In this document: positions 16,840 to 61,825 of the stretch, piece by piece
Layout of the letters: each line of letters begins with the position of its first letter
Numbering within the stretch: the stretch's first letter is position 1
NCBI GenBank assembly: GCA_963837465.1
Contig: CAWINB010000001.1
Span: 629,646 to 693,645, forward strand
Length of the DNA: 64,000 bases
Direction: 5' to 3'
Origin: Candidatus Doudnabacteria bacterium
GTDB lineage: Bacteria; Patescibacteriota; Doudnabacteria; UBA920
Translations under genes and position numbers: made by a program
The notes under the pieces: generated by a model
The model's input: only the letters and a program-made list of their open reading frames with translations
What the model was told of the DNA's origin: nothing
The model's database searches: none

Positions 16840-16890
16840 TTAAAAATATTTAAATCAGTATAGTCTTTTTCTGGGGCGTTGTCTATCAGG

Positions 16891-43185: not shown

Positions 43186-43261
43186 CGAGATTGACACGCC
43201 GCCTGCTTTCCTTGTATAATGCACGAGCAAATTATTTATTTAATCGTTTTCCAATAATTTT

Positions 43262-45546: not shown

Positions 45547-45632
45547 GCCGAAGTGATGGAATGGCAGACATGCACGGTTCAGGGCCGTGTGACCGCAAGG
45601 TCATGAGGGTTCGACTCCCTCCTTCGGCACCA
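45547..45632 (+). tRNA. tRNA-Leu (anticodon CAG), type II with long variable arm
   Basis: Acceptor gccgaag/cttcggc; anticodon stem cacgg/ccgtg with loop ttCAGgg; variable arm tgaccgcaaggtcat; T-arm gaggg ttcgact ccctc; discriminator A and encoded CCA. Confidence 0.85.
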
Positions 45633-47127: not shown

Positions 47128-47203
47128 AATCGTATAGATTAATAACTCTATATATAGTTATTATATAACATCTGTTATAATAAATGCAAATTCATACAAT
47201 TTT

Positions 47204-47410
47204 ATGATTGACATAGTAATTAAATTTGGCAAACGAGTTAAAGATATACGCCTGAAGAAACATTTATCCCAAGGTAAATTAGCAAAAATATTAGATGTTC
47301 ATCCCAGCTATATTAGCGGTATTGAACGTGGTTTGACGAATATGTCTTTAAAAAATATAGAGAAGATAGCAAAGTCTTTAAATGTTTCGGTAATCGATCT
47401 TCTAAAATAG
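47204..47410 (+). CDS. XRE-family helix-turn-helix transcriptional regulator
   Basis: 68 aa. LSQGKLAKILDVHPSYISGIERG is the canonical HTH_XRE motif. Confidence 0.7.
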   Translation: MIDIVIKFGKRVKDIRLKKHLSQGKLAKILDVHPSYISGIERGLTNMSLKNIEKIAKSLNVSVIDLLK

Positions 47411-47413
47411 TTT

Positions 47414-47980
47414 ATGATAAAGGCAATTATTTTTGATATTACTGGCGTATTATTCCCCGTTCAACCGTGGATAGGAGAGCGTCCATCACATGAAGAATTA
47501 TTAAAAATAAAACAAATTGCTACTGGTATTTATGATAAAGACAAAATGTCAAAAGAATACCTTAAAGAAAAAATCTTCCAAGCTAGCCGCCCACACAATG
47601 AATTAGAGGCTATATATAAAAGCTTAACTTTAATTGATGAGGATGTTTTCAATCTTATAAAAAAACTTTCGGAAAAATACTCTCTTTATTCCATAGCCAA
47701 TGAGGCGGAAAAATGGACAGATATTAGAAAAGATTTATATGGGTTTCAAAAGTACTTTAAAAAACTTTACATTTCAGTTGAAGTCGGAATGAGAAAACCC
47801 GAGGAAAGTATTTACAAATTACTTCTCAGCGAAACAGGACTGCTACCAGAAGAGTGTTTATTTATAGATGATAAAGCAATAAATGTTGAAGCGGCTCAAA
47901 AGCTTGGCTTTCAAGGATTTATATATAAAAATTTTAATAGCCTAAAGGAATATCTTATCAAAAACAATTTACTTGTTTAA
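47414..47980 (+). CDS. HAD-superfamily hydrolase
   Basis: 188 aa. N-terminal IIFDITGVL (the DxD/T motif variant) and C-terminal CLFIDDKAINVEAAQKLG (HAD motif IV). Confidence 0.65.
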   Translation: MIKAIIFDITGVLFPVQPWIGERPSHEELLKIKQIATGIYDKDKMSKEYLKEKIFQASRPHNELEAIYKSLTLIDEDVFNLIKKLSEKYSLYSIANEAEKWTDIRKDLYGFQKYFKKLYISVEVGMRKPEESIYKLLLSETGLLPEECLFIDDKAINVEAAQKLGFQGFIYKNFNSLKEYLIKNNLLV

Positions 47981-48052
47981 GTGTTTTATTGTCAATTGCG
48001 TTTGCGTTCTGCGCCCTGCGTCTCCCCAAAAAATCTTCCCTATCTCCGAACC

Positions 48053-48165
48053 TGTTTTTAAAAAACCGTCAGTTGCAGTTTAGCCCGCAAACACAATGGG
48101 CTGCCCTTAAGGCAGCCCTAGAAAAAGTTGGAAAAATTCCCTTGTGTAATATCTTGGTGAAGCTT
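48053..48165 (+). repeat. Inverted duplicate of the serine recombinase 3' terminal 110 bp (copy B)
   Basis: The reverse complement of 45628-45740 is identical, up to the shared cacca junction. It is annotated in the ORF track as the 71 aa ORF 47989..48204 ending ...KIPLCNILVKLYPDSRSHFIKNS. Confidence 0.8.
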
Positions 48166-48531
48166 TACCCTGACTCTCGATCTCATTTTATCAAAAACAG
48201 CTAACCTTGGCCACCCTAAACCTCCTTGCCCAAGGCTGTTTTTTGATTTAAAATTGAGGTGCCAACTGTATGAACGTCTGTACGAACACCATTCATACAC
48301 CAGAAGCACTAAAATCCTTAATTCCACTACCTCTCACTACTCCAAATATCCCTGACTACTATATATCACCAGATAATCTAACTGAACGACAAAATAGATA
48401 ATAATACTAAAAACAATAACTAAAATACTAATACTTAAAATACTTAAATACTAACTAAATACAAATATACTAAACTAACTTAAAACAAACCAAAAAAACA
48501 AAGTGAACAGAGAGGGGAAAATGGGGGGGGT
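48166..48531. repeat. Left arm of a long inverted repeat (about 370 bp) bounding the 48.2-61.2 kb block
   Basis: The reverse complement of 48166-48531 matches 60790-61174 almost base for base, apart from a few indels including a G8 versus C6 homopolymer. Confidence 0.85.
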
Positions 48532-48534
48532 GAG

Positions 48535-48566
48535 TTTTTTCCGCAAGCTAGAAGCTTGCGGAAAAA
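48535..48566. terminator. Perfect GC-rich hairpin flanked by T6 and A6 (bidirectional terminator-like) at the inner edge of the left repeat
   Basis: ttttttccgcaagct aga agcttgcggaaaaaa. Confidence 0.4.
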
Positions 48567-51336
48567 ATGGGGATGGAAAAAAACATTAAGCCTGTCATTA
48601 AAATTTATGATAGCGCACCAACACATTGTAGCGCAGCCATTAGTTCATCCAAGTTTATCCAATATCAATATTGGATACTTGCTTTGGCTACTGGCACTCA
48701 AAAGTATTCCAAGTTGGGAACGGCTAACTGGATACCTGTTAGGATACTTGGCCATTTTTACTTTGATCCTTGCCAAGTTTACCAATATTAACAGTCATGC
48801 TTTTGAAAAAATGAAGATTAAGCCCAAGGATTTGGAAAAACAACTTTCAGACACTCTATACTTCGAAATCACCATTGCCAAAAACTCCCAAACTACAGCT
48901 TTCCAAGTCCAGCAGAAAATCCTTAAAGCCTTCCACTCCATATATATTGACCCAGTGGAAGGCGCGCATAACTTTGGCTTTTTCTTTTTCTTCCAAAAGC
49001 TCTGGAGAAAGTTGAAGATCAACCGCTCCAAACAAGTTTTCTTTACCATGCAAGTTTGGGCTCAGCACCCATACATCTCTTTTAGGCTCCAAGTGCCAAA
49101 GGTAGAGTTCCAACGTCTGGAGAAAGCCATTTTTAACGCCTATCCTAATGCAGAAGTAGCCACACTAGATAAAAACAAAGCTCTTGAGGAAATTACCAAA
49201 TTTCCCAAGGGCTTTTTAAGTTATGGGGAAACTACAATAGAGGGACAGTTTTACCATAGGGTTAAGACTTTAAAAGATGTATCCAGTGACCCTGTTGATT
49301 CCATCATATCTACCATGGAAGGCCTTAAAAAAGGCCAGTTTATGATCTACAACGTCCTAGTATCTCCGGCTTCCCATTACTTTAACCAGCTAATCCATCA
49401 CCGTATTGAAGACCAGGAACAGCAAGGGGCGGTAAGCCAAGGAGATAAAAAGTTTGCACTACAGAAATGGGGCGCTGGTTCTGAACTGGCTAATGCCACA
49501 AACTCCGCCATGATAGAAAAAATGAAAGCCCCACTTTTCCAGACTATTGTGTCCTACTGGACAGTTGCAGATACAAAAGAGACGGCCGAAGCTAAACTCC
49601 GTAGCATCCAAGGCGTACTGACGGAAATCAACCAAAAAAATATGAACACGCTCAAGCACAATAGGCTGTTTACCAAACAGGTTAGCAAGTTGGAAAAGAA
49701 CGGCCAACTGAAAAATATTATTGACGGCAGGCCAATCTTTAAATTAAAAAGATTTTTCTTCTCCCCATTTGCCAAGTTTAAGAACTATGGGCAAATGCTT
49801 TCTGACAGTGAGCTTTATTCCTTTTGGCATTTACCCAATACTGCCATAAATACAGTATCTTCCATTAGGCTAACTAAGTTTAAAAAGCTCCCTGCTAGTC
49901 AACAACTTAGGGAACATGCTGATAATTTTTTCATTTCCCTTGGCCATGCCAATTTCAGGATGCAGGAAGAAACTCAAGTAGGTATTGCTACTTGGGAAGA
50001 TATGAAAAAACATATCTACATCTTAGGCGGAACAGGTAGCGGAAAATCTGAAACCTTAAAAACCATCCTAAGTAACCTGCTAGAGAAACAGGATGATGAA
50101 AAAACCGCCCTCTTGATAGTTGACCCTAAAAATGATTTCGCTACTGACCTGTTAACTATGATACCGGAGAGTAGAAAGCAAGACGTGGTTTACTTTAATC
50201 CCCAAAGACAAAAACAGAAACCCCTAGCGTTTCCTTTTTTTTCCAAGTTTTCAGGAGACAAGACCGATGAAGAGCGCTTAGAGTTTTTAATTTCCATAAT
50301 GAAACGCTTTGTGCAAATTGATTCCTCCTACTCCTGGGGGCCGGAGCTGGAAAACATTCTTAGGCAATTGTTTGCCACAGCGTTTGTCTTGCCCGAGCAA
50401 TCTCTGTCCGGACTGGATCTATTGCTCCACCAAAAAACTCAAATTCAAAATCTAGTAAGATATTTACCCCCAAGGCTTAAAGCCTTTTGGATGGATTCGA
50501 TTTTAAACAGGACGAATAACGATTTGGCTAAGTATTTAGCCACTACCAACAACAAACTGGGCAAGTTTTTAGACTATCCAGAGTTTATGAATATTGTTGA
50601 CCGCCAAGGCAGTAAAATATCTTTTGAGGATATGATTAACACCGGCAAGATATTTATCGCTAACCTTGGCTCGTGCAGCGAGCAAATGAAAAAATATTAT
50701 TCTGTCTATCTTACTGCTCACATTAGTGAAGCTATTTTTGACCAGGCCAGATTAAGTAGCCAAGACCGCAAACCCTGCGTGTTTGTGGTGGATGAATTCC
50801 AAAGAGTTGCCAGTGATATATTTGAAACCCTGTTTTCCGAGGTTAGGGCTTTTAATACCGCCTTAGTTATCTCTAACCAGTTCATGGGACAGTTAGATAT
50901 TAAAATCCAAAAATCCATAGAATCCAACATTGCCACTAAAATCTTTATGCGAACCCAGTCGGTTGATGACGCCGAGATTGCCGAGAAAATATTAGGCCAG
51001 AAGGTTTTAGTTGAAGACATTATTAACCTACCCACGGGTACGGCTTACATTAAAACCTTAGTTAAGGGTATTCCCCAAGACCCGATGTCTATTAATATCC
51101 AGAAAACCGAACATCCTAAAGATACTGCCAAAGACACCGAGGATTATTTTATCAGTATGGCTATGGACAAGTACGGTACGCCAATTGATGACATCGTAAG
51201 AGAACGCACCGCCGTAAACTCTCTCTATTATTCAGCCGGTGATAAAGAAAAAGAATTTCACGAAACTATGAGCAAGGGAAAAACTTTAACCATCCCGGAA
51301 GAAACACCAGAGGAAAAGACTAGTAATAATTTTTGA
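48556..51336 (+). CDS. Membrane-anchored P-loop ATPase of the FtsK/HerA/TraG-VirD4 (coupling-protein-like) superfamily
   Basis: 926 aa. The true start is probably downstream of the hairpin, around 48607. N-terminal TM helices (IGYLLWLLAL...LLGYLAIFTLILA). A C-terminal NTPase with Walker A ILGGTGSGKSETL, ALLIVDPKNDF, Walker B CVFVVDEFQ and ISNQ. The same architecture is seen in conjugative coupling and DNA-pumping ATPases. Confidence 0.5.
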   Translation: MRKKWGWKKTLSLSLKFMIAHQHIVAQPLVHPSLSNINIGYLLWLLALKSIPSWERLTGYLLGYLAIFTLILAKFTNINSHAFEKMKIKPKDLEKQLSDTLYFEITIAKNSQTTAFQVQQKILKAFHSIYIDPVEGAHNFGFFFFFQKLWRKLKINRSKQVFFTMQVWAQHPYISFRLQVPKVEFQRLEKAIFNAYPNAEVATLDKNKALEEITKFPKGFLSYGETTIEGQFYHRVKTLKDVSSDPVDSIISTMEGLKKGQFMIYNVLVSPASHYFNQLIHHRIEDQEQQGAVSQGDKKFALQKWGAGSELANATNSAMIEKMKAPLFQTIVSYWTVADTKETAEAKLRSIQGVLTEINQKNMNTLKHNRLFTKQVSKLEKNGQLKNIIDGRPIFKLKRFFFSPFAKFKNYGQMLSDSELYSFWHLPNTAINTVSSIRLTKFKKLPASQQLREHADNFFISLGHANFRMQEETQVGIATWEDMKKHIYILGGTGSGKSETLKTILSNLLEKQDDEKTALLIVDPKNDFATDLLTMIPESRKQDVVYFNPQRQKQKPLAFPFFSKFSGDKTDEERLEFLISIMKRFVQIDSSYSWGPELENILRQLFATAFVLPEQSLSGLDLLLHQKTQIQNLVRYLPPRLKAFWMDSILNRTNNDLAKYLATTNNKLGKFLDYPEFMNIVDRQGSKISFEDMINTGKIFIANLGSCSEQMKKYYSVYLTAHISEAIFDQARLSSQDRKPCVFVVDEFQRVASDIFETLFSEVRAFNTALVISNQFMGQLDIKIQKSIESNIATKIFMRTQSVDDAEIAEKILGQKVLVEDIINLPTGTAYIKTLVKGIPQDPMSINIQKTEHPKDTAKDTEDYFISMAMDKYGTPIDDIVRERTAVNSLYYSAGDKEKEFHETMSKGKTLTIPEETPEEKTSNNF

Positions 51337-51347
51337 TTTAAAAATCT

Positions 51348-52244
51348 ATGAGTTTCAACAACCCAGGTGTTAAATTAACCCCAAGAGTCGCAGGCTCTAA
51401 CTATCCCCTAAAGCTTAATCAGTCCGCTTTGGACATCTTAAGCTTAGTGTTTGAATTTAAACTTGCCGCCGCCTGGCACGTCTCGAGGTTTTTAACCCAA
51501 GAAAACCAAAACAAGTATGTCTATCTCAAACTCCGGCGGATGTGGCAGGCGGGCTATTTGGAAAGTTTTAAAGTCCATTCAGAATCCCTCCTTGGCTTTC
51601 CCGTCTACTACATGCTTTCCAAAAAAGGCTTAAGCATTTTAGCGGAGCACGGTCTTTATTCCCCCGGTCAACTCTCTAGTTATCCCTCCCCCAAAACTTT
51701 GTTTTCCCCACACCTGTTTAAACACGAAAGCCAAGTGGTGGAATTGGCCAGTTTGGAAGCCCAAAACCAGACTAAGGATTTAGATATCAAATTTAAAGGA
51801 GAACTAAGTTCACAAGGACAAAACATCCTAAGCGACAAGACTGTTGAAGCCTTAACTCCTGACTACACCGTTACATATATATCCGGCCAAACAGAACATA
51901 AAGTTTTTACCGAGTTTGAACGAACAGCAAAATCTAAAATGGCTCAAACTCGGAAGGTTGAAAGATACTTAAACTTTTTGGACTTTGAGCAGAGGCAGAC
52001 TGTAACCTTAAGGATAATTTTTCAGACATCTGGTATGGAGCAATCATTTTGGCTTAATGCTTTAACTAACCTGTCTAGGCTTTCCAGCTTAAGGATTGTT
52101 ACCACTAATCTTTCGTTACTAGACACCTCTAACCAGTTCCTTAAACCAATTTATAGTTCAGAGCAAACAGTAAAAATGGGAAGATTTGACGGGCGACTGA
52201 CTGTTAATACATCCGAGCGGATAAGGCTGTTTGAGTTTTTATGA
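51348..52244 (+). CDS. Hypothetical protein, possibly a replication-relaxation/plasmid replication-type wHTH protein
   Basis: 298 aa. An N-terminal wHTH-like segment (LDILSLVFEFKLAAAWHVSRFL...YVYLKLRRMWQAGYL) and a central H..HES.VVEL. The resemblance is weak and the call is pattern-based only. Confidence 0.3.
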   Translation: MSFNNPGVKLTPRVAGSNYPLKLNQSALDILSLVFEFKLAAAWHVSRFLTQENQNKYVYLKLRRMWQAGYLESFKVHSESLLGFPVYYMLSKKGLSILAEHGLYSPGQLSSYPSPKTLFSPHLFKHESQVVELASLEAQNQTKDLDIKFKGELSSQGQNILSDKTVEALTPDYTVTYISGQTEHKVFTEFERTAKSKMAQTRKVERYLNFLDFEQRQTVTLRIIFQTSGMEQSFWLNALTNLSRLSSLRIVTTNLSLLDTSNQFLKPIYSSEQTVKMGRFDGRLTVNTSERIRLFEFL

Positions 52245-52326
52245 GCTCAAAATTTTTGCCAGTAAATTTATTCATAGCCTGTAATGGACAAAAGAATGTA
52301 GTTCAACTAATTTTGCAGAAGTAATT

Positions 52327-53337
52327 TTATATACCCCTCTCTCCTAAAATATAAAATGTATTTAAAACTTCTTCTTTAATTTTGTGTGTATTGCCGTGTT
52401 TCAACATTCCTAAATAGGACTGCATTGTTTCGTTTGTGGGATGACCTTTCAAACGATTAAACATTCTTTTGCGGCTAGTTGTTCTCAAGACCTTATGTTT
52501 TGGGAAAACTATCCAACCTAAAAAATCAACTCCCGAAGATAATGTTTTTATAAAAACCTTATCTGGATGTAAGGCAAGTTTAAGTTCTGTATTTAAAAAA
52601 TCAGATATTTTTGGCAATAGGCCAAGTAAACAATTTTTACTTTGAGACAAAAAAACAAAATCATCGGCGTAACGGATATAATGCCGGATTTTGAGCTTGT
52701 GTTTTACAAACTGGTCAAACTCGTTCATATAAATATTACAAAATAACTGTGAGGTTAAATTGCCCAGCGGGAGTCCTTTTTTAGGTTCAACAAAATTAAA
52801 ACTATTTATTACATTTTGTAAAAGCCAAAGTACATTTTTGTCTGGAATATAACTTGTTATAATTCCCTGTAATTTAAAATGATCAATACTAGCAAAAAAC
52901 TTTCGTATATCACACTTAAGCACCCAAGCCGTTTTTGTATGATTTTTACTTACCTGTAAAGCAAAACTTTCAAACCTCTTAATTGCTTTATGCGTTCCTT
53001 TACAAACACGGCACGAATAGGAATCAGCGATAAAAGTTCTGTCAAAAAAAGGATACAGCTTTCGGTAAATAGCATGGTGTAAAACCCTATCCCTTACTTG
53101 GGCTTTATGAATATTACGCGGCTTGGGGTCTGTGATATTAAACGCTTTGTAATCCCCATGAATGTAACTAAAATTGGCAAGATCGCTCTGAAGCTGTAAA
53201 ATGTTATCAGCTAGACTCAAGCTAAACTCCTGAACATCTTTCTTATTTTTCTTACCAAATACAAACTCTTGCCACGCGGCAAATAAATTTTCGCGTGAAA
53301 TTACTTCCTCGTAGCTGGTTTTCAATTGAATTTTCAT
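52327..53337 (-). CDS. Diversity-generating retroelement (DGR) reverse transcriptase
   Basis: 336 aa. RT motifs include ...ITDPKPRNIHKAQVRDRVLHHAI (motifs 1-2), LKCDIRKFFASIDH (motif 3), and GLPLGNLTSQLFCNIYMNEFD. The [I/L]GxxxSQ variant of motif 4 is the DGR-RT hallmark, replacing the QGxxxSP of group II introns. YIRYADDFVFL has the YADD catalytic box. LALHPDK...GVDFLGW follows. The size (about 330-340 aa) and the lack of maturase or endonuclease domains fit a DGR RT. Confidence 0.8.
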   Translation of the reverse strand: MKIQLKTSYEEVISRENLFAAWQEFVFGKKNKKDVQEFSLSLADNILQLQSDLANFSYIHGDYKAFNITDPKPRNIHKAQVRDRVLHHAIYRKLYPFFDRTFIADSYSCRVCKGTHKAIKRFESFALQVSKNHTKTAWVLKCDIRKFFASIDHFKLQGIITSYIPDKNVLWLLQNVINSFNFVEPKKGLPLGNLTSQLFCNIYMNEFDQFVKHKLKIRHYIRYADDFVFLSQSKNCLLGLLPKISDFLNTELKLALHPDKVFIKTLSSGVDFLGWIVFPKHKVLRTTSRKRMFNRLKGHPTNETMQSYLGMLKHGNTHKIKEEVLNTFYILGERGI

Positions 53338-53396
53338 AATTAAGACATAAAAATGGCATTTAATTCACCCCCCCCCCCAACGCGAATTTTGGCAAT

Positions 53397-53744
53397 TTGC
53401 CAGTTTTACAAAAAATAACAAACGGTTACAAGCTTTGGCATAATTATTTACCACATCTTCCAAAACTGGTTAAGTATTCTTTGGCTGAAAAAATAAATAC
53501 TTTGTTTACAGATATTATTGAACTGATACTAACAGCCGGTTTTGCCGCTAAAGAGCATAAATCTGTTTTAGTGCAAAAGGCTAGCATTAAACTGGATACA
53601 CTCAAATATTTTTTACAATTAGCTTGGGAACTTAAAGCACTAGACAATAAACAGTTTTCTGCTATTTCCACGCCTTTAGTTGAAGTCGGTAAAATGCTTG
53701 GAGGATGGCAAAAGCAATTATTAAAAGAAACTCCTCCCAGATAG
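53397..53744 (+). CDS. avd: Avd-like accessory variability determinant (four-helix-bundle, 23S rRNA intervening-sequence protein family)
   Basis: 115 aa. Basic and helical, with the pattern LAEKINTLFTDIIELILTA...LDTLKYFLQLAWELKAL...EVGKMLGGWQK typical of the Avd/IVS family. It is divergently adjacent to the RT. Confidence 0.65.
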   Translation: MPVLQKITNGYKLWHNYLPHLPKLVKYSLAEKINTLFTDIIELILTAGFAAKEHKSVLVQKASIKLDTLKYFLQLAWELKALDNKQFSAISTPLVEVGKMLGGWQKQLLKETPPR

Positions 53745-53762
53745 GAGGAGTAAGAAGACAGT

Positions 53763-53892
53763 AGCGGGGAACAACGAACCGATCGTTGCGATTGTAGTTG
53801 TTGTCGACCCAATTGAAGTTGAGCACCCAACGCTGCGACTTCTCGTTCCAATTGAAGTAGGCAACGTTGCGGTTACGGTTGTCATCGAGCAA
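53763..53892 (-). repeat. DGR template repeat (TR)
   Basis: 130 bp matching 54245-54374 (VR). Every TR/VR mismatch falls where the TR has T on the plus strand, which is A on the minus-strand coding strand. The ORF-track entry 53662..53922 (-) is a spurious translation of the TR. Confidence 0.8.
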
Positions 53893-54224
53893 AATTATGC
53901 AAAACATCTTCTTATCCACCACCCCTTGAATACTCTTGGGGTTGTATTTTATTTGGGGCTATTAGCCCGCCAATACTTTGCACCGAGTATCTTCTTTTTA
54001 GATTTGCTAAAAAATACTCTACCGGAAACCGTGGCCGCCGATACTCTGATTTTTTAGCAATTCGCGATGTGGTTACCTGAAGCCATGACCGCAGGCACAA
54101 ATCCCATCTGTTTGGAGTATATCAAATTTTTCAATTTTTGAAAAAAAACGCCCGCATTTTGACCGAAGTCAAAATGCGGGCAATGCGAAGCGCCAAGGAA
54201 CCAAAACCCAAAAGAGCAAAGGGT

Positions 54225-54884
54225 TCAAGCGGCCAAGGGCAACTCGCGGGGAACAACGAACCGATCGCGGCGATTGTAGTAGCGGTCGACCCAAGGGAAG
54301 GAGAGCACCCAACGCCGCGACCGCTCGTGCCAATTGAAGTAGGCAACGCGGCGGCTACGGCTGACATCGAGCACCTCGGTAAGCGGCATAATAAAATAAT
54401 GCTTGCCGCGCGACTCGACCGGGAAGATTTCTTTCCCTTCCTCCTGCGCCTTCAACAGCGCAAAAGCGTAGCCGAGACTACCAATCGCTTTCATCTCGAT
54501 GGACCGCTGCAGCATGACTTCACCGCTGATGTAGTCGCCGTCACCATCCCGCAAAGGGCAGATGTAGTCGACATTGGCTAACTCGACGTCACCTTCCAGA
54601 CGGTCTTTACGGACGCCATCCTTGGTGACGTAAACCGAATAGCCGTTTGGCATCAGGCCGGTATCTTCAGCCCGAACGGGGGTGACGATGCCGCGAACCT
54701 TGTTGGCGTATTTCCTGATTACGGCTGCGATGTCGTCTTCCAAGCCCGTGCCTGGAAAACCCAATGCGGCTTGAAAGTGTTCTTCGGTAGTGCCTGACTT
54801 GCGAGCCGAGGCACGGAGACGTTCTTCGAGTTTACCTACTTGATTGTTGGATGGGGTAGATGGTGTGGTGGTCATCAGCGTCAT
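54225..54884 (-). CDS. DGR target (variable) protein; C-terminal variable region (VR) encoded at 54245-54374
   Basis: 219 aa. The C-terminal ...RRVAYFNWHERSRRWVLSFPWVDRYYNRRDRFVVPRE aligns to the TR-encoded NRNVAYFNWNEKSQRWVLNFNWVDNNYNRNDRFVVPRY. Asn (AAY) codons in the TR correspond to varied residues in the VR. The tail resembles the ...W...FRVV C-type-lectin-fold VR scaffold. Confidence 0.75.
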   Translation of the reverse strand: MTLMTTTPSTPSNNQVGKLEERLRASARKSGTTEEHFQAALGFPGTGLEDDIAAVIRKYANKVRGIVTPVRAEDTGLMPNGYSVYVTKDGVRKDRLEGDVELANVDYICPLRDGDGDYISGEVMLQRSIEMKAIGSLGYAFALLKAQEEGKEIFPVESRGKHYFIMPLTEVLDVSRSRRVAYFNWHERSRRWVLSFPWVDRYYNRRDRFVVPRELPLAA

Positions 54885-55163
54885 CCTCCTTATTCAATTT
54901 AGATTCAGTTCGCCGAAGCGAATCTGGGGTCAGCTTTCGCCTTAGCTTTAAATCCAAAAACTGTATTTTTTGGACAAATAGATAAGGCTAAAATTAACTT
55001 TTTATTGTACACTATTTTATTACTTATGTCAAGTTTAGCTTAATTGAGGGAAAATTTCCCTAAGTTAGCTCTTGGAGCTTTCCAATTGGCTAGTTCTTCT
55101 CGGTCTTGTTCTCCTGGGTTCATAAATTTATAGTTTCTGCCTAAGAGGCATTAGAGTTTAATT

Positions 55164-55658
55164 TTAGCGTTCGGCTAAATTTAAAGTAGCACCAAGAGTA
55201 TTAAGTTTTTGTTTTTCAACAGGACTTAATACTTGGTTAATGGCTTTATATAGGTCTGCTTCTAGTATAGTGCGTAGTGCAAGTTTTTCTCCATCCGTTC
55301 CAGGACTGTTTTTAATAAATTCTTGAAAATTTCTTGAATTCCTATTAATCTCTTCCACTGCATGTTGTAGATTATCATTATTTGTAGATGGACTATTGAG
55401 CTCGGTTCTAATTTGTTCCAATAAGCCGTTCAAGCTAAAGTGTATGAAATTGTCTACATCTTTTTTAAAATTTTCGGGAGAGGATGCCTGCACTTCATGT
55501 TGGCTTTTTTCTTGTTGTAATTTAACATCATGCTCGTGTGTTTGATATCCCACAATACCTAAAGCTGCAACACCACCTAACGCGGCGGCCTTACCAAGCT
55601 TGCCCGCACTTTTTTTTATATCTGGCTCCTCCGAAAAACCTCTATTTTCTCTTCCCAT
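55164..55658 (-). CDS. Hypothetical protein with N-terminal hydrophobic/Gly-Ala segment
   Basis: 164 aa, with no recognisable motif. Confidence 0.35.
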   Translation of the reverse strand: MGRENRGFSEEPDIKKSAGKLGKAAALGGVAALGIVGYQTHEHDVKLQQEKSQHEVQASSPENFKKDVDNFIHFSLNGLLEQIRTELNSPSTNNDNLQHAVEEINRNSRNFQEFIKNSPGTDGEKLALRTILEADLYKAINQVLSPVEKQKLNTLGATLNLAER

Positions 55659-56017
55659 AAAAAAATTTTATTTCTCCCAAAATGGGGATTATATTTTTAA
55701 ACAACGGCTTGATTAAGCCATCTCCGTTTCAACCACTGTGCACTGGAAGTGCACAGACTGCTCGCCGACTGGAAGTCGAGAACAGCGGAGGAATTATCTA
55801 TTAATTTTTACTGAAGTGACCGCCTGAAGGCGTGGGAACTCACCGCCCCAAATGGAGGCCTTAGATTAATTATATACCAATGGTAATTTAAAGCAATTCA
55901 AATAAGCACAATGTTGTCAGTTTCGTGGGCATGCCATATACCATCTACAGGCGGCTAAATTAACCGACTATAGATGACGGCGCAGAAAACAAAGTTCTCT
56001 GCGCCTACTCCAGACCC

Positions 56018-56251
56018 TCATCTTATCATGTGTCGAAATTCCCACAAATGCAACAAGAGGTCACCGGCAACGATAGCCCAAAAGAAGGCCTTGCGAGCTT
56101 TCCTTTTTGGGGATTCGTTCTGCACTCGTTTGAACATCTCTCGCGCGAACTGATAAGCTTCCTGTTCCCTTGAACGGTAGTCAGCTAATTCTGCCTCCGT
56201 CGCCTCTCTTAATTCATACTGCCTGAACCCGACTTGGACTGGTATTTTCAT
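56018..56251 (-). CDS. Hypothetical small protein
   Basis: 77 aa ORF in a coding-dense region of the block. Confidence 0.3.
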   Translation of the reverse strand: MKIPVQVGFRQYELREATEAELADYRSREQEAYQFAREMFKRVQNESPKRKARKAFFWAIVAGDLLLHLWEFRHMIR

Positions 56252-56347
56252 AACTCCTCCTTCTCCCTACCTCAAAAAATAAAATTTATTTGTTAAGGTA
56301 GAGGTGCAAGAGTCGGTTAAGAATCTTGCACATCCGCATACATGGCC

Positions 56348-56701
56348 CTATACGGCGGGCGAGAACATCTTAGCAACGGCCAGGGCTATCTTGATGCCTT
56401 CTTGAAGGCTGTAGCCCCAGTGGTCATTAACCCATCCTCCGCCGAACCGGGGGGTAAACCGGTCGTAGAACATGGAATACAACTGCATCTCTTGGCTGCC
56501 CTTTCTCAACTTGACTGTAGCACCGCCCCCGTGTCGAGGCCTGACATCACATTCAACTACCAGTCCCGCGGCCTCAAACTCGGGCACTTTTTCCGCAATC
56601 ATCTCCAGGTGCTTGCGAAAGGCTCGTACTGCTTGGCCGCCGCAGTCGTCATCGTACCTAAGCTCACTAGCTGCTTTTAGAAGTTGTTCTTGTGCGTTCA
56701 T
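56348..56701 (-). CDS. Hypothetical protein
   Basis: 117 aa ORF. Overlapping ORFs lie on the other strand, so this is the likelier coding strand from local context. The call is weak. Confidence 0.3.
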   Translation of the reverse strand: MNAQEQLLKAASELRYDDDCGGQAVRAFRKHLEMIAEKVPEFEAAGLVVECDVRPRHGGGATVKLRKGSQEMQLYSMFYDRFTPRFGGGWVNDHWGYSLQEGIKIALAVAKMFSPAV

Positions 56702-56903
56702 AAATCCCCCTTAAGTGGTCCGCTATTGCAAACAGTTGCTTCCCATTTGATTGGGACTTGCTGGCAGTTATCCAAATTACTGCCTAGCATTCGCTGTTTA
56801 CACGGAATGATTTTAGGGTTTGAAACCCTACTTTAATAAACAAATATTATTTACTAAGGTAGGGGCGGAAGATCAACAAAGAGCGTTGTTCTTCCGCGCC
56901 AGT

Positions 56904-57431
56904 TCACTTGCCGAACAGAAAGACGTTCACAAACTGGTCGAAGTGATTTTGTTCTCTTCGATAGCTCCGTTCGTCTTTTTTGACCGTGCTGATTTGGTAA
57001 GGGATGTCTTTGCGCACTTCTTGACGGAAGTCATCTGCGTTGCCGGATTCGATCAACTGGCAGGAGTCCCATTTTTTGAACACATAGCCTTCCAGCTCGC
57101 CACGGCAACGTTGTATGGACTGGAACTCGCCTGTATTTGAGACGGACCAGAAAGTCAGTTCGGAATAGAGAGAGTTGAAAAAAATTACCACGACCCCCTC
57201 ACGGATTATTTTGTCACCAACGGCAACTTTCGGCTCGAAGTCCTTCACGTAAAGAATACTGGCCTTTGAACCGCTGTCCTTGCCGGTGTCCGCGTTCTTG
57301 AAGTAGATATCGACGCTCTGCTTATCGCCAAGCAGCTTTTGCAAATTTTGCGTAAAGCTACTCCGTTCCGGCGCCTGGGCCATTGCGGCGATGGTGGTGA
57401 AAACGAAAATACTAAGCAAGCTCTTCATTTT
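56904..57431 (-). CDS. Secreted hypothetical protein (signal peptide MKSLLSIFVFTTIAAMAQA)
   Basis: The ORF track extends to 57521. The internal Met followed by a signal peptide is the probable start. Confidence 0.4.
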   Translation of the reverse strand, partial: KMKSLLSIFVFTTIAAMAQAPERSSFTQNLQKLLGDKQSVDIYFKNADTGKDSGSKASILYVKDFEPKVAVGDKIIREGVVVIFFNSLYSELTFWSVSNTGEFQSIQRCRGELEGYVFKKWDSCQLIESGNADDFRQEVRKDIPYQISTVKKDERSYRREQNHFDQFVNVFLFGK

Positions 57432-57612
57432 ATTGCCCTCCTTGGGCTTTGGGGGATAAAGTTGCCTCCGGTTCCGAATCCCTGGGTTCGGGGAGGTGCT
57501 ACAATCTATTGTAACTAGCAATTATCACATAAAATTATATTACTGTCAATAATAAGAACTTATTAAATATCATAAAAAACCTATTAATAAAGCTCAAAAT
57601 GGTATTATAGAA

Positions 57613-58404
57613 TTGTTTGTCCAAATACTGGACAAAAATATAATTAGGGTGTATAATGGTTATATGGATTTAAAACAGGTTTTATCAAACATTGGGTTAG
57701 ATGAAAAAGAAACAGCCACTTATATGGCTGTTTTGGAGTTAGGGACAAGCAGTGTTTATTCTATTGCTAAAAAGGCAGAGTTAAAAAGGCCAACAGTTTA
57801 CAGACTATTAGATCAATTAGGTCAAAAAGGTTTAGTAACTATTGTGCCCAGAGTAAAAAAACAGCTTTACACAGCCAATTCGCCGGAACATATAGTTAGC
57901 GAACTACAGCGCAAAGCTGAGGTGATGAAAAATTACTTGCCACAATTTTTGGCCATTTTTAATTCCAAAAAAGACAAGCCCCAAGTGCAGTTATTTGAGG
58001 GCAAAGAGGCAGTAAGGCAAGTTTATCAAAAATGCATTTCTCTTAATAAAGTTTGGTTTTTTGGCAGCGTCAGCGAAATGTTTGATACGGAAGAATTTAA
58101 GCTGTTTTTAAAAAGGGTTAAGGCTGGTGAGTTAAAAGCCCGTGATTTATTTGTTAGCTCAGAAAAAGACCTAGGGTTCGCGCGATCCCAAAAGCCCCAG
58201 GCTAATTATGAAATAAAATTTTTGCCAGAACAAACAGAAAATCCCATAACAGACTTTGCGGTGTTTGGCGATAACTTAGTTTTTTTCTCTTTTCGTCCTA
58301 CAAAATTTGCTGTATTAATCACCAGCAAAGAAGTCGCTGGCACTTTCCGATTGCTCTATGAATCAGCTTGGAGTGGTGCAAAAAATGTCGGCCATATGAA
58401 ATAA
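57613..58404 (+). CDS. TrmB-family winged-helix transcriptional regulator
   Basis: 263 aa; the probable start is MDLKQVL at 57664. LELGTSSVYSIAKKAELKRPTVYRLLDQLGQKGLV is the TrmB N-terminal wHTH. Confidence 0.6.
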   Translation: MFVQILDKNIIRVYNGYMDLKQVLSNIGLDEKETATYMAVLELGTSSVYSIAKKAELKRPTVYRLLDQLGQKGLVTIVPRVKKQLYTANSPEHIVSELQRKAEVMKNYLPQFLAIFNSKKDKPQVQLFEGKEAVRQVYQKCISLNKVWFFGSVSEMFDTEEFKLFLKRVKAGELKARDLFVSSEKDLGFARSQKPQANYEIKFLPEQTENPITDFAVFGDNLVFFSFRPTKFAVLITSKEVAGTFRLLYESAWSGAKNVGHMK

Positions 58405-58564
58405 AACGACTAGCTTAATGTTATGGAACTAATTGAGAAGGTAGAGCAAACTTAAAGTTTGTTAAAATCGTGACCAATTATCTAACGCATGGGGTAGGGA
58501 TTGCTGGTTTGTTGTCCCCTCCCCTTTTATACCTATATGTTACTAAAACAGATTAGGCATAAAT

Positions 58565-59488
58565 TTAATCTCCTGTATTTCTTAAATGCAAAGGCACTTC
58601 CTGCTCTTTTTTATGTCTTTCTCCGTAAGCCGTTGTTGCTGGTTTTAAATCACCTAAAGCTGTTAGCTCGTGGGCTATATTGCCAGACCAAAGCGCTCCG
58701 CTTATATGAGGCTTGGTGGTCTTGCTATAAGAAGATGCTAAATCACTAACCTGTCTTAGCGTCCTGTTCATCACCGATTTATAAGCTTCTTTTAATTCTT
58801 TGGTTCGGGAAAGTTTGGTAATAAATTTACCAAATTCTTCCGCATTAAAAGGCTGCGCAGAAGCGGTTAACTCTTGGAATTTCAAAATTGATTGGAGCCA
58901 CGGTTTTTTATAAGCCCCCTGCTGGTCTTCGTAAATTAAACCTTTTAGCATTTCATATCCTTGCCTCTCCAACCATGCAATCGCTAAAATCATATTCGGC
59001 TCAATACCAACTTCCTTTTCCTGCATCATTTTTTCCAATTTCCCATTTACAATATCCATAGCAAGCCGCAAGGCTTCGGCTGGCACCAAATTTTCGCCGT
59101 TTGCAACCTCAGCCAAAGCCTTATTAAGTTCAGCGTCTGACGTAGCTGGCGGAGCCTCCTCAACCATCTTTGTATTTTCTTCAAGTCTTTTTAATATATC
59201 AATAACTTTTTCTTGTTTTTGTTCCCCATCCACCAAAGTCTTTACCTCTTTATCATAATTGGCTAAATCGTATATTAGAGCTTGTCTTTCTGCGGGAGCC
59301 AAATAGCCTTCCGTCTTAGGTAACAATGTAGGGAGTTCGCCCTTGTCGTGGGTTTCATTGTATTTAATCATTGCCTGGACAACTTCCCTAACCAATGGCC
59401 TTTGGTCGTGGACAAAATCACGAAAAGCTCCGAATGTGCCAGCCAAAGCCAAAGCATTCTTTTCTATTTTGCTCCAGTTTGGCAACAT
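58565..59488 (-). CDS. Hypothetical protein
   Basis: 307 aa. Overlaps the upstream ORF by 71 bp, so a fusion or frameshift is possible. Confidence 0.35.
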   Translation of the reverse strand: MLPNWSKIEKNALALAGTFGAFRDFVHDQRPLVREVVQAMIKYNETHDKGELPTLLPKTEGYLAPAERQALIYDLANYDKEVKTLVDGEQKQEKVIDILKRLEENTKMVEEAPPATSDAELNKALAEVANGENLVPAEALRLAMDIVNGKLEKMMQEKEVGIEPNMILAIAWLERQGYEMLKGLIYEDQQGAYKKPWLQSILKFQELTASAQPFNAEEFGKFITKLSRTKELKEAYKSVMNRTLRQVSDLASSYSKTTKPHISGALWSGNIAHELTALGDLKPATTAYGERHKKEQEVPLHLRNTGD

Positions 59489-60560
59489 TACTTGTCGGCA
59501 CTTCCCGCAAAGCCATTAAAAGTTCATTTATATTTTTTGGGTTGACGTCGACTGCATATGAATGCACGGTAAAATCTGCAATTCCAAAATCACCTCTTTT
59601 CATACCCCATACATTACTCGGCTTTTGTAATACTTCAACTTGAGGGTCTTGTTTATCTATTGCCGGTAGTAATTTATTTTCAAAACCCACAGTAGATTGT
59701 TCAGTCAGTGGGTGGAGTCTTCCATAACTTCTTATCACACGCAAATATGTTGTTGCTGTTTCTGGATTTTTATCAAAGCAGTCTTTAAAAAGCTGAAAGT
59801 ATATTTGCGCTTGTTCTGGGTTGTGTGAGTCACAGGCTAAATGAAAAAATGAATTCTGAAATTCTTTAACAAAATTTTGATTGTCTGGAGCATTTTTTAA
59901 TTCAGCAGGTAAGTCCTCTAAAAATTGCTTGATTTCTTTATAAGTTGCGAACTGAGCTGCGATTTCTTTTTGGTCTCTTTCGGGCGGCTTGGGACTTCTG
60001 TTCCGACCGCTCATCTCGTTAATAAAAGTATTAAACTCTACAACTTTCCTTCTTTTAGAATCCGCATCTTCCTGACTATCGATAGCGGGTTTCCATTCAT
60101 CAAATAACTGCCTATAAAATTTTAGCTTTTCTATGGAGTCGGAAGTGGCTGTAATAGCCTCAATTCGATATCTTCTGCTATCAAGACGATTTTGATCAGG
60201 CTCAAAGGCGGCTATATCCTTTTCAAAGGACATGGTTTCAGCAACATACGAAGCCATCTCTTGTTCCGGAACATTTGCTTTTACAAAATTTGCAACAATC
60301 AGGTCTTTTGTCCAGCCATAGTTAAACTTTGCGTTCCCCGCCATTTGTTTTTGCTCATCAGTAAGGTTATCAACCGTAACGCCTTCTTGTTCCGCAACGG
60401 CCGTTAAAAAATCATCGTCAGAATAATCAGATATATACTCACTGACTAATTTATGAACTTGCTCGGTTTTGATTCTTTCCTTTTCTTCCCTTTGGATTTC
60501 TTCAGGACTCTTAGGCATTACCACCTCAGGAGAGTTATCTATCGAATCTTCAAACGCCAT
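59418..60560 (-). CDS. Hypothetical acidic protein
   Basis: 380 aa, with no recognisable motif. Confidence 0.35.
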   Translation of the reverse strand: MAFEDSIDNSPEVVMPKSPEEIQREEKERIKTEQVHKLVSEYISDYSDDDFLTAVAEQEGVTVDNLTDEQKQMAGNAKFNYGWTKDLIVANFVKANVPEQEMASYVAETMSFEKDIAAFEPDQNRLDSRRYRIEAITATSDSIEKLKFYRQLFDEWKPAIDSQEDADSKRRKVVEFNTFINEMSGRNRSPKPPERDQKEIAAQFATYKEIKQFLEDLPAELKNAPDNQNFVKEFQNSFFHLACDSHNPEQAQIYFQLFKDCFDKNPETATTYLRVIRSYGRLHPLTEQSTVGFENKLLPAIDKQDPQVEVLQKPSNVWGMKRGDFGIADFTVHSYAVDVNPKNINELLMALREVPTSNVAKLEQNRKECFGFGWHIRSFS

Positions 60561-60789
60561 ATTATTTGCATTAAATAATTTTATAGCTTAATAATAACAA
60601 AAAAACCCCTCAATTACGAGCGGGGCGGTTTGCAGTAGGGAGATTGTAGCCCAAATGTGCGCGGATTGGGCGGGTGGGGCAAGCACATTTTCTTCAATTA
60701 ATTCTCTTGTAATGCACCCCTGTTTTTGAGCCAATCCACAACCCTGCCTTTTTCTGATTTCTGCCTGTTTTTTGTCCCTGTTTCTTGTT

Positions 60790-61174
60790 TTCCACCCCCC
60801 ATTTTCCCCTCTCTGTTTCCTTTGTTTTTTTGGTTTGTTTTAAGTTAGTTTAGTATATTATATTTAGTTAGTATTTAAGTATTTTTTAAGTATAGTATTT
60901 TAGTTATTATTGTTTTTAGTATTATTATCTATTTTGTCGTTCAGTTAGATTATCTGGTGATATATAGTAGTCAGGGATATTTGGAGTAGTGAGAGGTAGT
61001 GGAATTAAGGATTTTAGTGCTTCTGGTGTATGAATGGTGTTCGTACAGACGTTCATACAGTTGGCACCTCAATTTTAAATCAAAAAACAGCCTTGGGCAA
61101 GGAGGTTTAGGGTGGCCAAGGTTAGCTGTTTTTGATAAAATGAGATCGAGAGTCAGGGTAAAGCTTCACCAAGA
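60790..61174. repeat. Right arm of the long inverted repeat (reverse complement of 48053-48531 region)
   Basis: Near-identical to the reverse complement of 48148-48531. It continues as a diverged recombinase 3' fragment. Confidence 0.85.
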
Positions 61175-61445
61175 TTAGACCAAGTTTAGTTTCAGGAATT
61201 TTTTTATGGGCTGCCGCAACGGCAGCCCATTGTGTTTGCGGCACGGAAACGATTTTTTGATTTTGCAGCCAGAGGTTCAACCCGAAAATTTTTTTGGCAG
61301 CAGATTTTTTGGCCTGCAAGTCGAGCGAAAGCGTTATTTCGCCCAATTTTTCTGCGTCTTTGATGAAGTTTTTCATAGGTTCAACCCAAATTTTTCCCTC
61401 ATGTTCCAGACGGCTGATTTGTTCTGTGAGGGTCTTCTTTTCCAA
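61122..61445 (-). pseudogene. Diverged C-terminal fragment (about 107 aa) of a large serine recombinase (copy C)
   Basis: ...WVEPMKNFIKDAEKLGEITLSLDLQAKKSAAKKIFGLNLWLQNQKIVSVPQTQWAAVAAAHKKIPETKLGLILVKLYPDSRSHFIKNS aligns to the last roughly 100 aa of the 45601..47127 recombinase. It carries the same tail as copy B. Confidence 0.7.
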
Positions 61446-61457
61446 AGTCGTTTAGGG

Positions 61458-61575
61458 CTTTTGGTGTATGAATGGTGTTCGTACAGACGTTCATACTGTT
61501 GATACCCCAATTTTAAATCAAAAAACAGCCCTCTGGCAAGGGTGGCCAAGGCTAAGAATTGTTGATAAAATAGGT
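61458..61575. repeat. Third, partial and diverged (about 85% identity) copy of the inner part of the inverted-repeat unit
   Basis: ggtgtatgaatggtgttcgtacagacgttcatactgttgataccccaattttaaatcaaaaaacagcc... compared with 61020-61140. Confidence 0.6.
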
Positions 61576-61825
61576 TTGGATGGAGTTAAACATTTCCACC
61601 AGAATAGAACTTAAAAAATTCAAAAAACTCCCGCATCGTGGGAGTTTTAAGTTGGAAAAATTATTAAGAACCTGTTTGAAAAATAATATGCGGGCGGAAT
61701 TTAAGAATTTTGAGACAAAATATCAAAACAAATTTTGAGGTTTAACCTAAGTTAAGCGGAGAAATTTTTTTGGGATTTTGGCCAAAATTCTTAAATCGCG
61801 GCCCGAAGTATTTTTAAAACAGGTT

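Follow-up and report, generated by a model that had tools for sequence, protein, structure and literature searches.

The 64,000-nucleotide stretch of a Candidatus Doudnabacteria genome analysed here (assembly GCA_963837465.1, contig CAWINB010000001.1, positions 629,646 to 693,645; hereafter the window, in whose own numbering positions are given) contains a block of about 13 kb between near-identical inverted repeats, which a preliminary description had singled out as a candidate mobile element of unclear type. Examination of this region reveals that the block is the cargo, and the larger of two segments (segment 2), of a 15.5 kb island in a tRNA-Leu(CAG) gene. We propose, with a probability of roughly 0.6, that a large serine recombinase encoded by the island (gene rec, product Rec) placed it (45633-61171) in the CCA end of the tRNA gene, that the island has a three-site layout which includes a spare, inverted copy of the element's own attachment site (attP), and that the free element is a circle with two attP copies.

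A repeat search in the window recovered three inverted pairs, namely 48151-48467 with 60859-61175 (317 nt, 93%), 48464-48528 with 60795-60859 (65 nt, 97%) and 48085-48129 with 61197-61241 (45 nt, 84%), which gapped blastn merges into a single match of 48085-48528 to 61241-60795 (93.8% over 450 columns). This inverted repeat is not attributable to chance, and the near-identical arms noted earlier are thus real. The earlier reading of each arm as a recombinase 3' fragment followed by non-coding DNA is likewise borne out, since the open reading frames (ORFs) 47989-48204 and 61122-61445 (minus strand) end in a common C-terminal peptide, ...LVKLYPDSRSHFIKNS, beyond which lie about 330 nt without a gene. 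Where only two repeat copies had been described, self-comparison of the window reveals that the attachment-site region is present four times. Copy A is the 3' end of the intact recombinase gene, where 45628-45740 is an inverted copy of 48047-48159 (113 nt, 100%); copies B (48047-48531) and C (60795-61445) are the left and right flagged arms; and copy D is partial (61451-61601).

Common to all four copies is a 5-nt core, CACCA/TGGTG (45628-45632, 48155-48159, 61167-61171 and 61597-61601), which corresponds to the last acceptor base, the discriminator and the CCA of the tRNA. Read in the orientation of rec, copy A joins the end of rec to the tRNA, copy B joins the end of rec to a native tail and non-coding DNA, copy C joins an older rec fragment to a native tail and non-coding DNA, and copy D joins chromosomal DNA with a terminator hairpin to a diverged tail and non-coding DNA. 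The switch of partner at TGGTG (CACCA on the tRNA strand) can be read directly in all four junctions, and four junctions that swap partners at one core point to site-specific insertion into the 3' end of the tRNA gene. Copy A is then the left hybrid site (attL) and copy D a right hybrid site (attR), with uncut attP-type joints in B and C. To judge from their sequences, the flagged terminal inverted repeats are two copies of one attP arm (the P' arm, here arm t) and not transposon-type termini. A second inverted pair, formed by the other arm (arm r, 113 nt, 100%), brackets segment 1 (45741-48046), which contains rec together with genes for an XRE-type helix-turn-helix (HTH) regulator and a HAD hydrolase. 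The preliminary description was right that no standard element class fits; what it took for element-length terminal repeats are attachment-site arms.

The limits of the element also differ from the 48053-61575 given earlier. The newer element extends from 45633 to 61171 (15,539 bp, equal to the spacing of the A and C repeats), or to 61601 with an older remnant, and takes in the neighbouring recombinase, HTH and HAD genes. Its G+C content is 40.3%, against 47.6% in the rest of the window. At its right end lie leftovers of an earlier island, comprising a diverged recombinase fragment within 61122-61445 and a remnant at 61451-61601 that includes an 80-nt repeat at 93%; the hybrid junction C (r3/t) would be the trace of an insertion beside that earlier island. 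The earlier suggestion of a tandem of integrated elements accordingly holds for these right-hand pieces and fails for the left arm, a complete attP in inverted orientation that is conserved in a family of related elements. A GC-rich hairpin within the last 113 nt of rec (45669-45689, copied at 48098-48118) is terminator-like on the tRNA strand and lies 37 nt past the tRNA. It probably replaces the tRNA's own terminator, which now stands 16 kb away at 61627-61645, and its copy at the internal site would also be expected to block transcription from the cargo towards rec. Equivalent terminator hairpins lie outside the right junction in two related loci (L004 and L023).

Rec is a canonical large serine recombinase. 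It matches PF00239, PF07508 and PF13408 in Pfam, and a profile of its family recovers the SPbeta integrase (E = 1e-22) and the A118 integrase (E = 2e-16) among PDB sequences. An AlphaFold model of a relative (P0009; predicted local distance difference test, pLDDT, 89) has long helices at residues 347-450, and its best Foldseek matches are the SPbeta integrase synaptic complexes 9dxd and 9dxh. With 508 residues and the recombinase and zinc-ribbon domains, the enzyme falls outside the Hin/Gin/Cin/Pin invertases, which have about 190 residues and a C-terminal HTH.

The crossover point lies within the coding sequence of rec. The complement of the tRNA gene supplies the last 10 codons of rec (PKEGVEPS...), such that this tRNA-tailed form ends ...LVPKEGVEPS, and a G-I/V/F-E-P motif recurs in the tRNA-encoded tails of homologues. 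The native tail, by comparison, comprises 14-16 codons past the core that are conserved as a peptide, approximately LVxLYxxxARxxFIxNS, with synonymous codon variation. It forms the last helix of the P0009 model (residues 500-517, pLDDT about 92), with the crossover at about 504/505. Integration thus swaps the terminal helix for 5-40 arbitrary residues encoded by the tRNA complement.

The two arms that can follow the core differ in their geometry. Across 30 loci, the T-loop motif TCGAA begins 13-14 nt from the core on the tRNA side, and TCGRA begins 17-18 nt from it on the side of the native tail, the shift amounting to +5 in 21 loci and +4 in 8. The zinc-ribbon-domain motif is reportedly placed about 5 bp further out in attP than in chromosomal (attB) half-sites in the A118/LI integrase structure. 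As the shift matches this attP/attB geometry, arm t can be classed as P-type and the arm on the tRNA side as B-type, which makes the internal site a genuine attP. The reconstructed attB of the tRNA-Leu gene reads GGCACCA followed by GAATAGAAC...

Arm t carries further sequence motifs. In many relatives the native tail is followed at once by two or three directly repeated copies of a motif of the ACCCCTTCA type and then by an inverted copy, TGAAGGGGT (L083 5690-5763, L081 5680-5720, L086 6070-6130, L109 3690-3760, L021, L030 and L013). This looks like an iteron- or operator-like protein-binding array. Arm t of the window has instead another hairpin (GTATGAACG...CGTTCATAC) and an AT-rich tract of TACTAAA repeats (48370-48480).

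Searches with the recombinase reveal that this organisation extends far beyond the window. Homologues number 4,547 at E < 1e-30 among the 8,000 candidates scored, and a scan of a genome collection yielded 80 loci, almost all from metagenome-assembled genomes of Patescibacteria and some from complete long-read chromosomes (L002/L021 and L051). A convergent tRNA gene overlaps the rec stop codon or lies within 300 nt of it in 56 of the 80 loci, most of the others being contigs that end there. The targets include genes for the tRNAs of Leu, Lys, Gly, Ser, Asn, Gln, Phe, Thr, Ala, Ile, Cys, Trp and Arg. The HTH gene is divergent from rec in most relatives. No exact match to the window's recombinase was present in the contig index, the exact 31-nt attP pattern had no match in metagenome contigs, and no relative of Rec or of the island's ATPase was detected in 2.9 million viral contigs.

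An inverted copy of the final 92-219 nt of rec, typically 96-100% identical, lies 1.5-10 kb upstream in about 45 of the 80 loci. These loci encode recombinases 37-60% identical to that of the window and lie at more than 10 different tRNA genes. Twelve loci with enough flank also have a second inverted pair (140-420 nt), which abuts the first with an overlap of 4-9 nt; next to its far member lies chromosomal DNA that includes a terminator hairpin. Hybrid junctions at the common core can also be read in L002, L004, L017, L021 and L023. The family design that follows from these alignments is, in the orientation of rec, attR (d/t), segment 2, an inverted complete attP (t'/r'), segment 1 with rec, and attL (r/tRNA), and the window follows it exactly. 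Upstream flank of 9 kb or more is available for 30 loci, of which 20 have the internal site; among the closer relatives in this set the count is 20 of about 24. By this comparison, the three-site layout is the normal design of a large family of Patescibacterial elements.

Certain members of the family show further features at their sites. In a Kaiserbacteria contig (L111 11490-11661, JACPLC010000002.1) that holds a chromosomal three-site element at tRNA-Leu(CAG), rec crosses the core into 24 nt of arm t, which is followed by a tRNA fragment joined at the common TCGAAC motif and then by an intact tRNA; this junction looks like an aberrant or secondary recombination product. Five Peregrinibacteria/Gracilibacteria loci (L031 9477-10004, L038 9464-9988, L039 9397-9996, L044 9384-10004 and L070 9477-10007) have an ORF of 175-200 codons in the direction of rec, which extends from arm t' across the core and arm r' as far as the start codon of rec. 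Rich in R, G, P and K and without a Pfam match, this ORF is 33-74% identical between loci, and may be either a genuine overlapping gene or an incidental result of DNA or RNA conservation.

The inverted arms evolve in concert. One relative, L084 (a 3.4 kb contig of ENA ERZ27254241), is the same element as that of the window (93.4% nucleotide identity over 3.4 kb, recombinase 99%) and adjoins tRNA-Leu(TAG), not tRNA-Leu(CAG), which suggests that one recombinase uses two Leu isoacceptor genes or that two hosts are involved. Arm r differs between the two elements at about nine positions, and at these the two arms of each element carry that element's variant; among them is a triple change that keeps the pairing of the hairpin (GGGCTGCC...GGCAGCCC versus GGGCTGCG...CGCAGCCC). 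The same holds on a larger scale: over the core-proximal 85 nt of paired arms in 43 loci, partners within a locus have a median identity of 100%, as against 80% in comparison with the nearest other locus, and the within-locus value is the higher in 42. Past the 113-nt tract, the internal copy runs on as a diverged recombinase remnant, and the boundary is common to the window and L084. This points to an old duplication, the core-proximal part of which is being homogenised.

Evidence on the free form comes from the tails and from small contigs. Full-length homologues with a native tail constitute 16 of the best 120, and all 16 lie on contigs of at most 13.6 kb; contigs above 20 kb thus hold 0 of 16 native-tail genes, as against 31 of 77 for tRNA-tailed proteins (Fisher p = 0.0009). 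A 5.8 kb contig, L083, contains rec, the HTH gene and two genes of undescribed function between perfect 288-nt inverted repeats that continue on either side through the core and 120 nt or more into arm t. Given that an integrated copy would show the tRNA on one side, L083 fits a molecule with two inverted attP copies, which is also what excision between attL and attR must yield. Another contig, L081, has the order rec, attP, Replic_Relax, genes similar to those for type IV coupling proteins (T4CPs) and inverted attP. The free form is, as these contigs suggest, probably a circle.

The orientation of the segments is largely constant. Wherever a genome locus has the repeat, rec points towards the tRNA, and all five Peregrinibacteria/Gracilibacteria loci inspected, which occupy three different tRNA genes, have the HTH gene next to the internal site. 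This fixed direction of rec and position of the HTH gene imply that inversion is not at equilibrium. The end of the ATPase module adjoins the internal attP in the window, in L084, in L089 (the same SBP-tRNA-Leu locus in a relative), in L092 and in L025. It adjoins the chromosomal junction in L100 (iPGM and FHA genes, a terminator, then arm t) and follows a full-length recombinase in L087. The presence of the module on both sides indicates either that segment 2 has flipped in evolution or that single-attP relatives exist.

In light of these observations, we propose that attP spans the end of the element's own rec, with the last ~113 nt of the gene as its left arm (r) and the native last 14 codons with ~330 nt of non-coding DNA as its right arm (t). 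The island would then hold three sites with one core: attL (r/tRNA), the internal inverted attP (r/t) and the right junction (x/t), where x in the window is the older recombinase fragment, followed by the attR of the older island. The free form would be a circle with two inverted attP copies that integrates by attP x attB recombination through the copy which terminates rec. This would swap the terminal alpha-helix of Rec for tRNA-encoded residues and leave the second attP intact in the island. The present element probably entered the attL of the earlier island, which would have created junction C, and the earlier island may then have decayed to the ~400 nt that comprise the recombinase fragment of C and copy D. 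Gene conversion between the inverted arms could maintain their identity. As both segments are flanked by inverted sites, each would be invertible in principle, with one orientation predominating.

Several observations weigh against this proposal. To our knowledge, classical serine integrases do not recombine attP with attL, attR or another attP, and the spare site may be inert; as an attP in a cell that lacks attB is inert by the known rules of serine integrases, the conservation of the spare copy needs another explanation. No circular contig was recovered, and the two-attP circle rests on L083 and on the confinement of native-tail genes to small contigs. Tandem arrays are another possible source of such genes; 61122-61445 is an example here and L087 a probable one, its arm t being joined out of frame to a recombinase from a different clade. 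The inverted copy is absent within 10 kb in 10 of the 30 long-flank loci, six of these being distant relatives (at most 34% identity) or having a truncated rec. The outer inverted pair of the window is only 94% identical, which indicates that homogenisation is not current here. Finally, no candidate recombination directionality factor was recognised, segment 1 having only the XRE HTH and HAD hydrolase genes, with such factors being too diverse for exclusion by sequence.

An alternative that we consider unlikely but credible is a programmed inversion switch, in which segment 1, segment 2 or both flip through Rec acting at the cores or RecA acting across the arms; a flip of segment 1 would join the full-length rec to the stored native tail and re-arm the enzyme, and a flip of segment 2 would re-orient the cargo. 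Inverted sites with an identical core do bracket both segments, the arms have the length (92-219 nt and 220-420 nt) and the maintained identity that RecA would require of a substrate, and integration removes a conserved and confidently modelled terminal helix. Furthermore, the different placements of the ATPase end described above (internal attP, chromosomal junction or full-length recombinase) are those expected of a flipping segment, and the flipped state would recreate the order rec, attP, ATPase/Replic_Relax of L081 and L087. The uniform direction of rec and the HTH gene positions speak against the switch, the orientation not being randomised; L100 and L087 may be single-attP or tandem arrangements instead of flipped ones, and canonical large serine recombinases are not known to act on attP x attL. 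The preliminary description had offered an invertible segment as one option, and what survives of it is that inversion is chemically possible and that relatives carry the ATPase end at either site, as against the single orientation of most relatives. A related idea, advanced tentatively and with a somewhat lower probability, is that the integrase is controlled at the DNA level by the spare inverted attP, which would stand in for a directionality factor: loss of the helix would lock the island, and a rare inversion of segment 1 would license excision. The internal copy would store the native 3' end, and the 2.3 kb segment would invert across the 113-nt repeats by RecA or residual Rec to rebuild the native gene in the order rec, attP, ATPase. 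Such a lock would explain why genomes always hold the locked isomer, why the arms are long and identical, and why native-tail genes occur only on small molecules.

That the internal site and the right fragment are functionless debris of past insertions or rearrangements, kept similar by incidental gene conversion, appears quite improbable. The right end is clearly debris of an earlier island, the internal copy past the 113-nt identical tract is a diverged recombinase remnant, the arms have drifted in L085 (73%), L017 (84%) and L109 (89%), and the small ORF at the internal site lacks a conserved start codon. Debris is nevertheless not expected to persist in very small genomes as a core-bounded, complete inverted attP in about 45 loci with such divergent recombinases and tRNA targets, nor to share its arm boundary between the window and L084. 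Less probable still is a plasmid comparable to the yeast 2-micron circle, the inverted attP pair of which would drive fork reversal and amplify copy number, with integration being secondary. The inferred free form would have two inverted sites in perfect repeats of 300-640 bp and two unique segments, and the window element encodes a Replic_Relax protein with a match to nicking-type replication initiation; the minimal family members, however, combine rec with restriction-modification or metabolic cargo and no recognisable replication gene, segment orientation is largely fixed among relatives as against the equal isomers of 2-micron, and attP x attP recombination is not known for this class of enzyme. 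Next to no probability remains for an artefact of assembly or for the integration of a linear plasmid or virus bearing terminal inverted repeats. Many short-read contigs of relatives do break at the repeats, and a collapsed repeat had been named earlier as a possible refutation of the block. This is rejected on the grounds of a 6% difference between the arms, their unique flanks and the recurrence of the layout in separately assembled genomes, complete long-read chromosomes among them. With regard to a linear plasmid or virus, there are no polymerase, capsid or terminase genes and no viral relatives of Rec or the ATPase, and the repeats stop exactly at the recombination core.

Three other roles of the internal site were considered. 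That it encodes a trans-complementing C-terminal fragment of Rec or a directionality factor was rejected as a general explanation, the upstream frame being short and often without a start codon. Single-stranded transfer, in which the arms fold into a duplex attP, was rejected by reasoning, as the exchange would give a linear chromosome with hairpin ends. A simple operator of rec is generally unlikely, given distances of 0.2-10 kb to the rec promoter.

The cargo of the window element includes several recognisable modules, and Pfam upholds the earlier list of a 926-residue ATPase, a replication-relaxation protein, a diversity-generating retroelement (DGR) and a TrmB regulator. The ATPase matches TrwB_AAD_bind (E = 9e-13) and TraG-D_C (E = 4e-5) in addition to DUF87/HerA and FtsK, lacks a match among PDB sequences, and is 22-24% identical to plasmid genes annotated as DNA-transfer proteins of type IV secretion systems (T4SS). 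The 298-residue protein scores 25.3 bits against PF13814 (Replic_Relax), exactly at the cutoff of 25.3, such that its assignment as a relaxase is weak; it matches a PHROG family for replication initiation by nicking (E = 3e-4). The comparison with plasmids urged in the preliminary description thus yielded matches for the ATPase, and no tblastn match to the 298-residue protein in 72,556 plasmids. The pair is kept at 46-85% identity in 21 metagenome loci, several of which have a DGR at the same position. No secretion components of the mating-pair formation apparatus that sets an integrative conjugative element (ICE) apart from a mobilizable one were detected by Pfam or PHROG among the remaining nine cargo ORFs. 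Nor was a T4SS that the element could exploit identified, the rest of the window not having been scanned for one. The same searches of the cargo support the earlier statement that DNA polymerase, capsid and terminase genes are missing. The features expected of a linear plasmid or virus with terminal inverted repeats are accordingly absent. We consider the element best called an integrative, possibly mobilizable island on the strength of its gene content, which makes the earlier option of an integrative, mobilizable, plasmid-like element essentially right, in the form of a serine-recombinase island in tRNA-Leu(CAG) with a coupling-protein-like ATPase and a Replic_Relax protein.

The DGR has a reverse transcriptase (RVT_1, E = 8e-24), a bAvd protein (E = 4e-14) and a pair of 128-nt template and variable repeats (TR and VR), with the VR at the 3' end of the target gene. 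As all 18 internal TR/VR mismatches fall at adenines of the TR (18/18), the DGR looks active. DGRs are also present in relatives (L017 4590-8019, L086 1133-4175, L102 2179-3507 and L104 16002-16750), and in ATPase-type elements they occupy the same position, after Replic_Relax. Islands of this type may be a main route by which DGRs spread in Patescibacteria. Most relatives of the recombinase module lack the ATPase and Replic_Relax genes. Among the genes found in segment 2 of other family members are those for Mrr, GmrSD, MvaI/BcnI with a methylase, a C5 methylase, an Eco57I-type enzyme, an ABC transporter component, a thiamine pyrophosphate (TPP) enzyme and an enolase.

Features of the island and its junctions in the window (S1-S4, the four core sites).
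Feature	Position	Strand	Evidence and remarks
tRNA-Leu(CAG), integration target	45547..45632	+	ARAGORN; Rfam tRNA 47.8 bits; last 5 nt = core (attL, site S1)
Large serine recombinase (rec), 508 aa	45601..47127	-	Pfam Resolvase + Recombinase + Zn_ribbon_recom
Inner inverted repeat (IR1) arm A (arm r), last 113 nt of rec to core	45628..45740	.	100% inverted match to 48047-48159; hairpin 45669-45689
XRE-type HTH regulator, segment 1	47204-47410	+	Pfam; divergent from rec
HAD hydrolase, segment 1	47414-47980	+	Pfam
IR1 arm B, inverted copy of rec 3' end	48047..48159	.	with P' arm, internal complete attP (site S2, core TGGTG 48155-48159)
Outer inverted repeat (IR2) left arm, P' arm of attP	48160..48531	+	native tail KLYPDSRSHFIKNS* (48160-48204) + ~330 nt non-coding, with one hairpin and an AT-rich tract
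Membrane-anchored coupling-protein-like ATPase, 926 aa	48556-51336	+	Pfam DUF87/TrwB_AAD_bind/FtsK/TraG-D_C
Replic_Relax protein, 298 aa	51348-52244	+	PF13814, score exactly at cutoff
DGR reverse transcriptase	52327-53337	-	Pfam RVT_1
bAvd	53397-53744	+	Pfam
DGR TR	53764-53891		
DGR VR	54246-54373		at 3' end of target gene 54225-54884(-)
Four hypothetical genes	55164-57521	-	no Pfam or PHROG match
TrmB-family regulator	57613-58404	+	Pfam
Hypothetical 307-aa and 380-aa genes	58565-60560	-	no Pfam/PHROG match; read inward from right arm
IR2 right arm, second P' arm copy	60795..61175	.	right junction, site S3, core CACCA 61167-61171
Older diverged recombinase, 107-aa 3' fragment	61122..61445	-	direct repeat of 45658-45902 at 73-84%; fused in frame to newer element's tail (r3/t)
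Remnant of earlier island	61451..61601	-	~125 nt non-coding arm + diverged tail + core CACCA 61597-61601; original attR, S4
Original downstream flank of tRNA gene	61602..61650	+	displaced terminator hairpin 61627-61645

The tRNA-Leu gene was missed by a whole-window Rfam run at the gathering threshold, the hit being lost to the filters of large searches, and was recovered by a local run at the score given in the table. Elsewhere in the window, two 1,451-nt insertion sequence (IS) copies (16880-18330 and 41746-43196) are 100% identical, inverted and 23.4 kb apart, each with a 428-aa ORF that has a weak match to the rve integrase core; the pair could mediate an inversion of the 23 kb between them or reflect a very recent transposition. 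A 1,110-aa ORF (20716-24048, minus strand) contains a tandem 129-nt (43-codon) repeat in two copies at 85% (23412-23669). Genes for tRNA-Ile(GAT) and tRNA-Ala(TGC) lie 0.8 kb apart at 7676-8561 in an arrangement like that of an rRNA spacer, and no rRNA gene was detected by Rfam in the whole window.

Together, these observations describe a serine-integrase genomic island of known type with an unexplained conserved architecture, and a very large family of tRNA-targeting large serine recombinases in ultra-small, mostly uncultured bacteria. Since genome sequences directly reveal attP, attB and the crossover region, the family should help to map mobile DNA in Patescibacteria and to supply new integrases whose sites can be predicted. 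With its cargo of defence systems, metabolic genes and DGRs, it is a main carrier of gene flux among organisms in which few mobile elements are known. The homogenised, inverted spare attP and the swap of the terminal helix fall outside the current picture of serine-integrase elements and, if functional, would constitute a new control of the direction of recombination that requires no accessory protein. No description of an internal inverted attP in serine-integrase islands was found in the full-text literature, in which DsiB of Dehalococcoides was found as a precedent, and the layout is apparently undescribed.

The island shares with the serine-integrase modules of phiC31, Bxb1, A118/LI and SPbeta (SprA) the catalytic, recombinase and zinc-ribbon domains with a long coiled coil, the short core, the hybrid attL and attR, and the zinc-ribbon motif displaced outward by about 5 bp in the attP-type half-site. 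It differs from them in that the target is the CCA end of a tRNA gene, that attP lies in the 3' end of the integrase gene such that integration rewrites the C-terminus, and that the integrated element retains a second, complete inverted attP with long homogenised arms and has no recognised directionality factor. An attachment site within the recombinase ORF is also a feature of the SSV1-type archaeal virus integrases, where attP lies inside int, which is partitioned on integration and restored on excision. These are tyrosine recombinases with a mid-gene split, whereas in the present element the exchange is confined to the last 14 codons, with an additional 3' copy kept in the island.

The combination of an expressed gene with an inverted, promoterless 3' copy that offers an alternative terminus, identical inverted repeats of about 100-300 bp and a recombinase encoded on the spot recalls the Hin/Gin/Cin systems and the hsdS shufflons. 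In the present case, however, the gene that would be switched is that of the recombinase itself, a large serine integrase, and one orientation of rec is seen. The yeast 2-micron plasmid, with FLP/FRT in 599-bp inverted repeats, resembles the inferred circle in having two perfect repeats, each with a recombinase site, and two segments, but it uses a tyrosine recombinase, does not integrate and exists as equal isomers, and most members of the present family lack a replication gene. With integrative and mobilizable elements (IMEs) the island has in common the site-specific insertion at a tRNA gene, a coupling-protein-like ATPase and a putative relaxase or replication protein, and no mating-pore apparatus. 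It departs from them in the weak assignment of the relaxase, with a Pfam score at the cutoff, and in that most relatives of the recombinase module lack the ATPase and relaxase genes.

The closest described system is that of the Dehalococcoides ssrA islands (McMurdie et al. 2011, PMC3146451), which likewise have a large serine recombinase gene at the island edge with its 3' end over attL. There, a CcrB-like serine recombinase, DsiB, is encoded by a gene the 3' end of which always overlaps attL, and the target is the tRNA-like tmRNA gene, with variable read-through tails, islands that pile up in tandem and varied cargo (PMC3146451). For those islands direct repeats only are reported, and no inverted internal site; they have a second small recombinase, DsiA, and their tail was deemed non-functional by the authors (PMC3146451). 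In the family described here, the native tail is conserved and a spare copy of it is stored in inverted orientation within the island.

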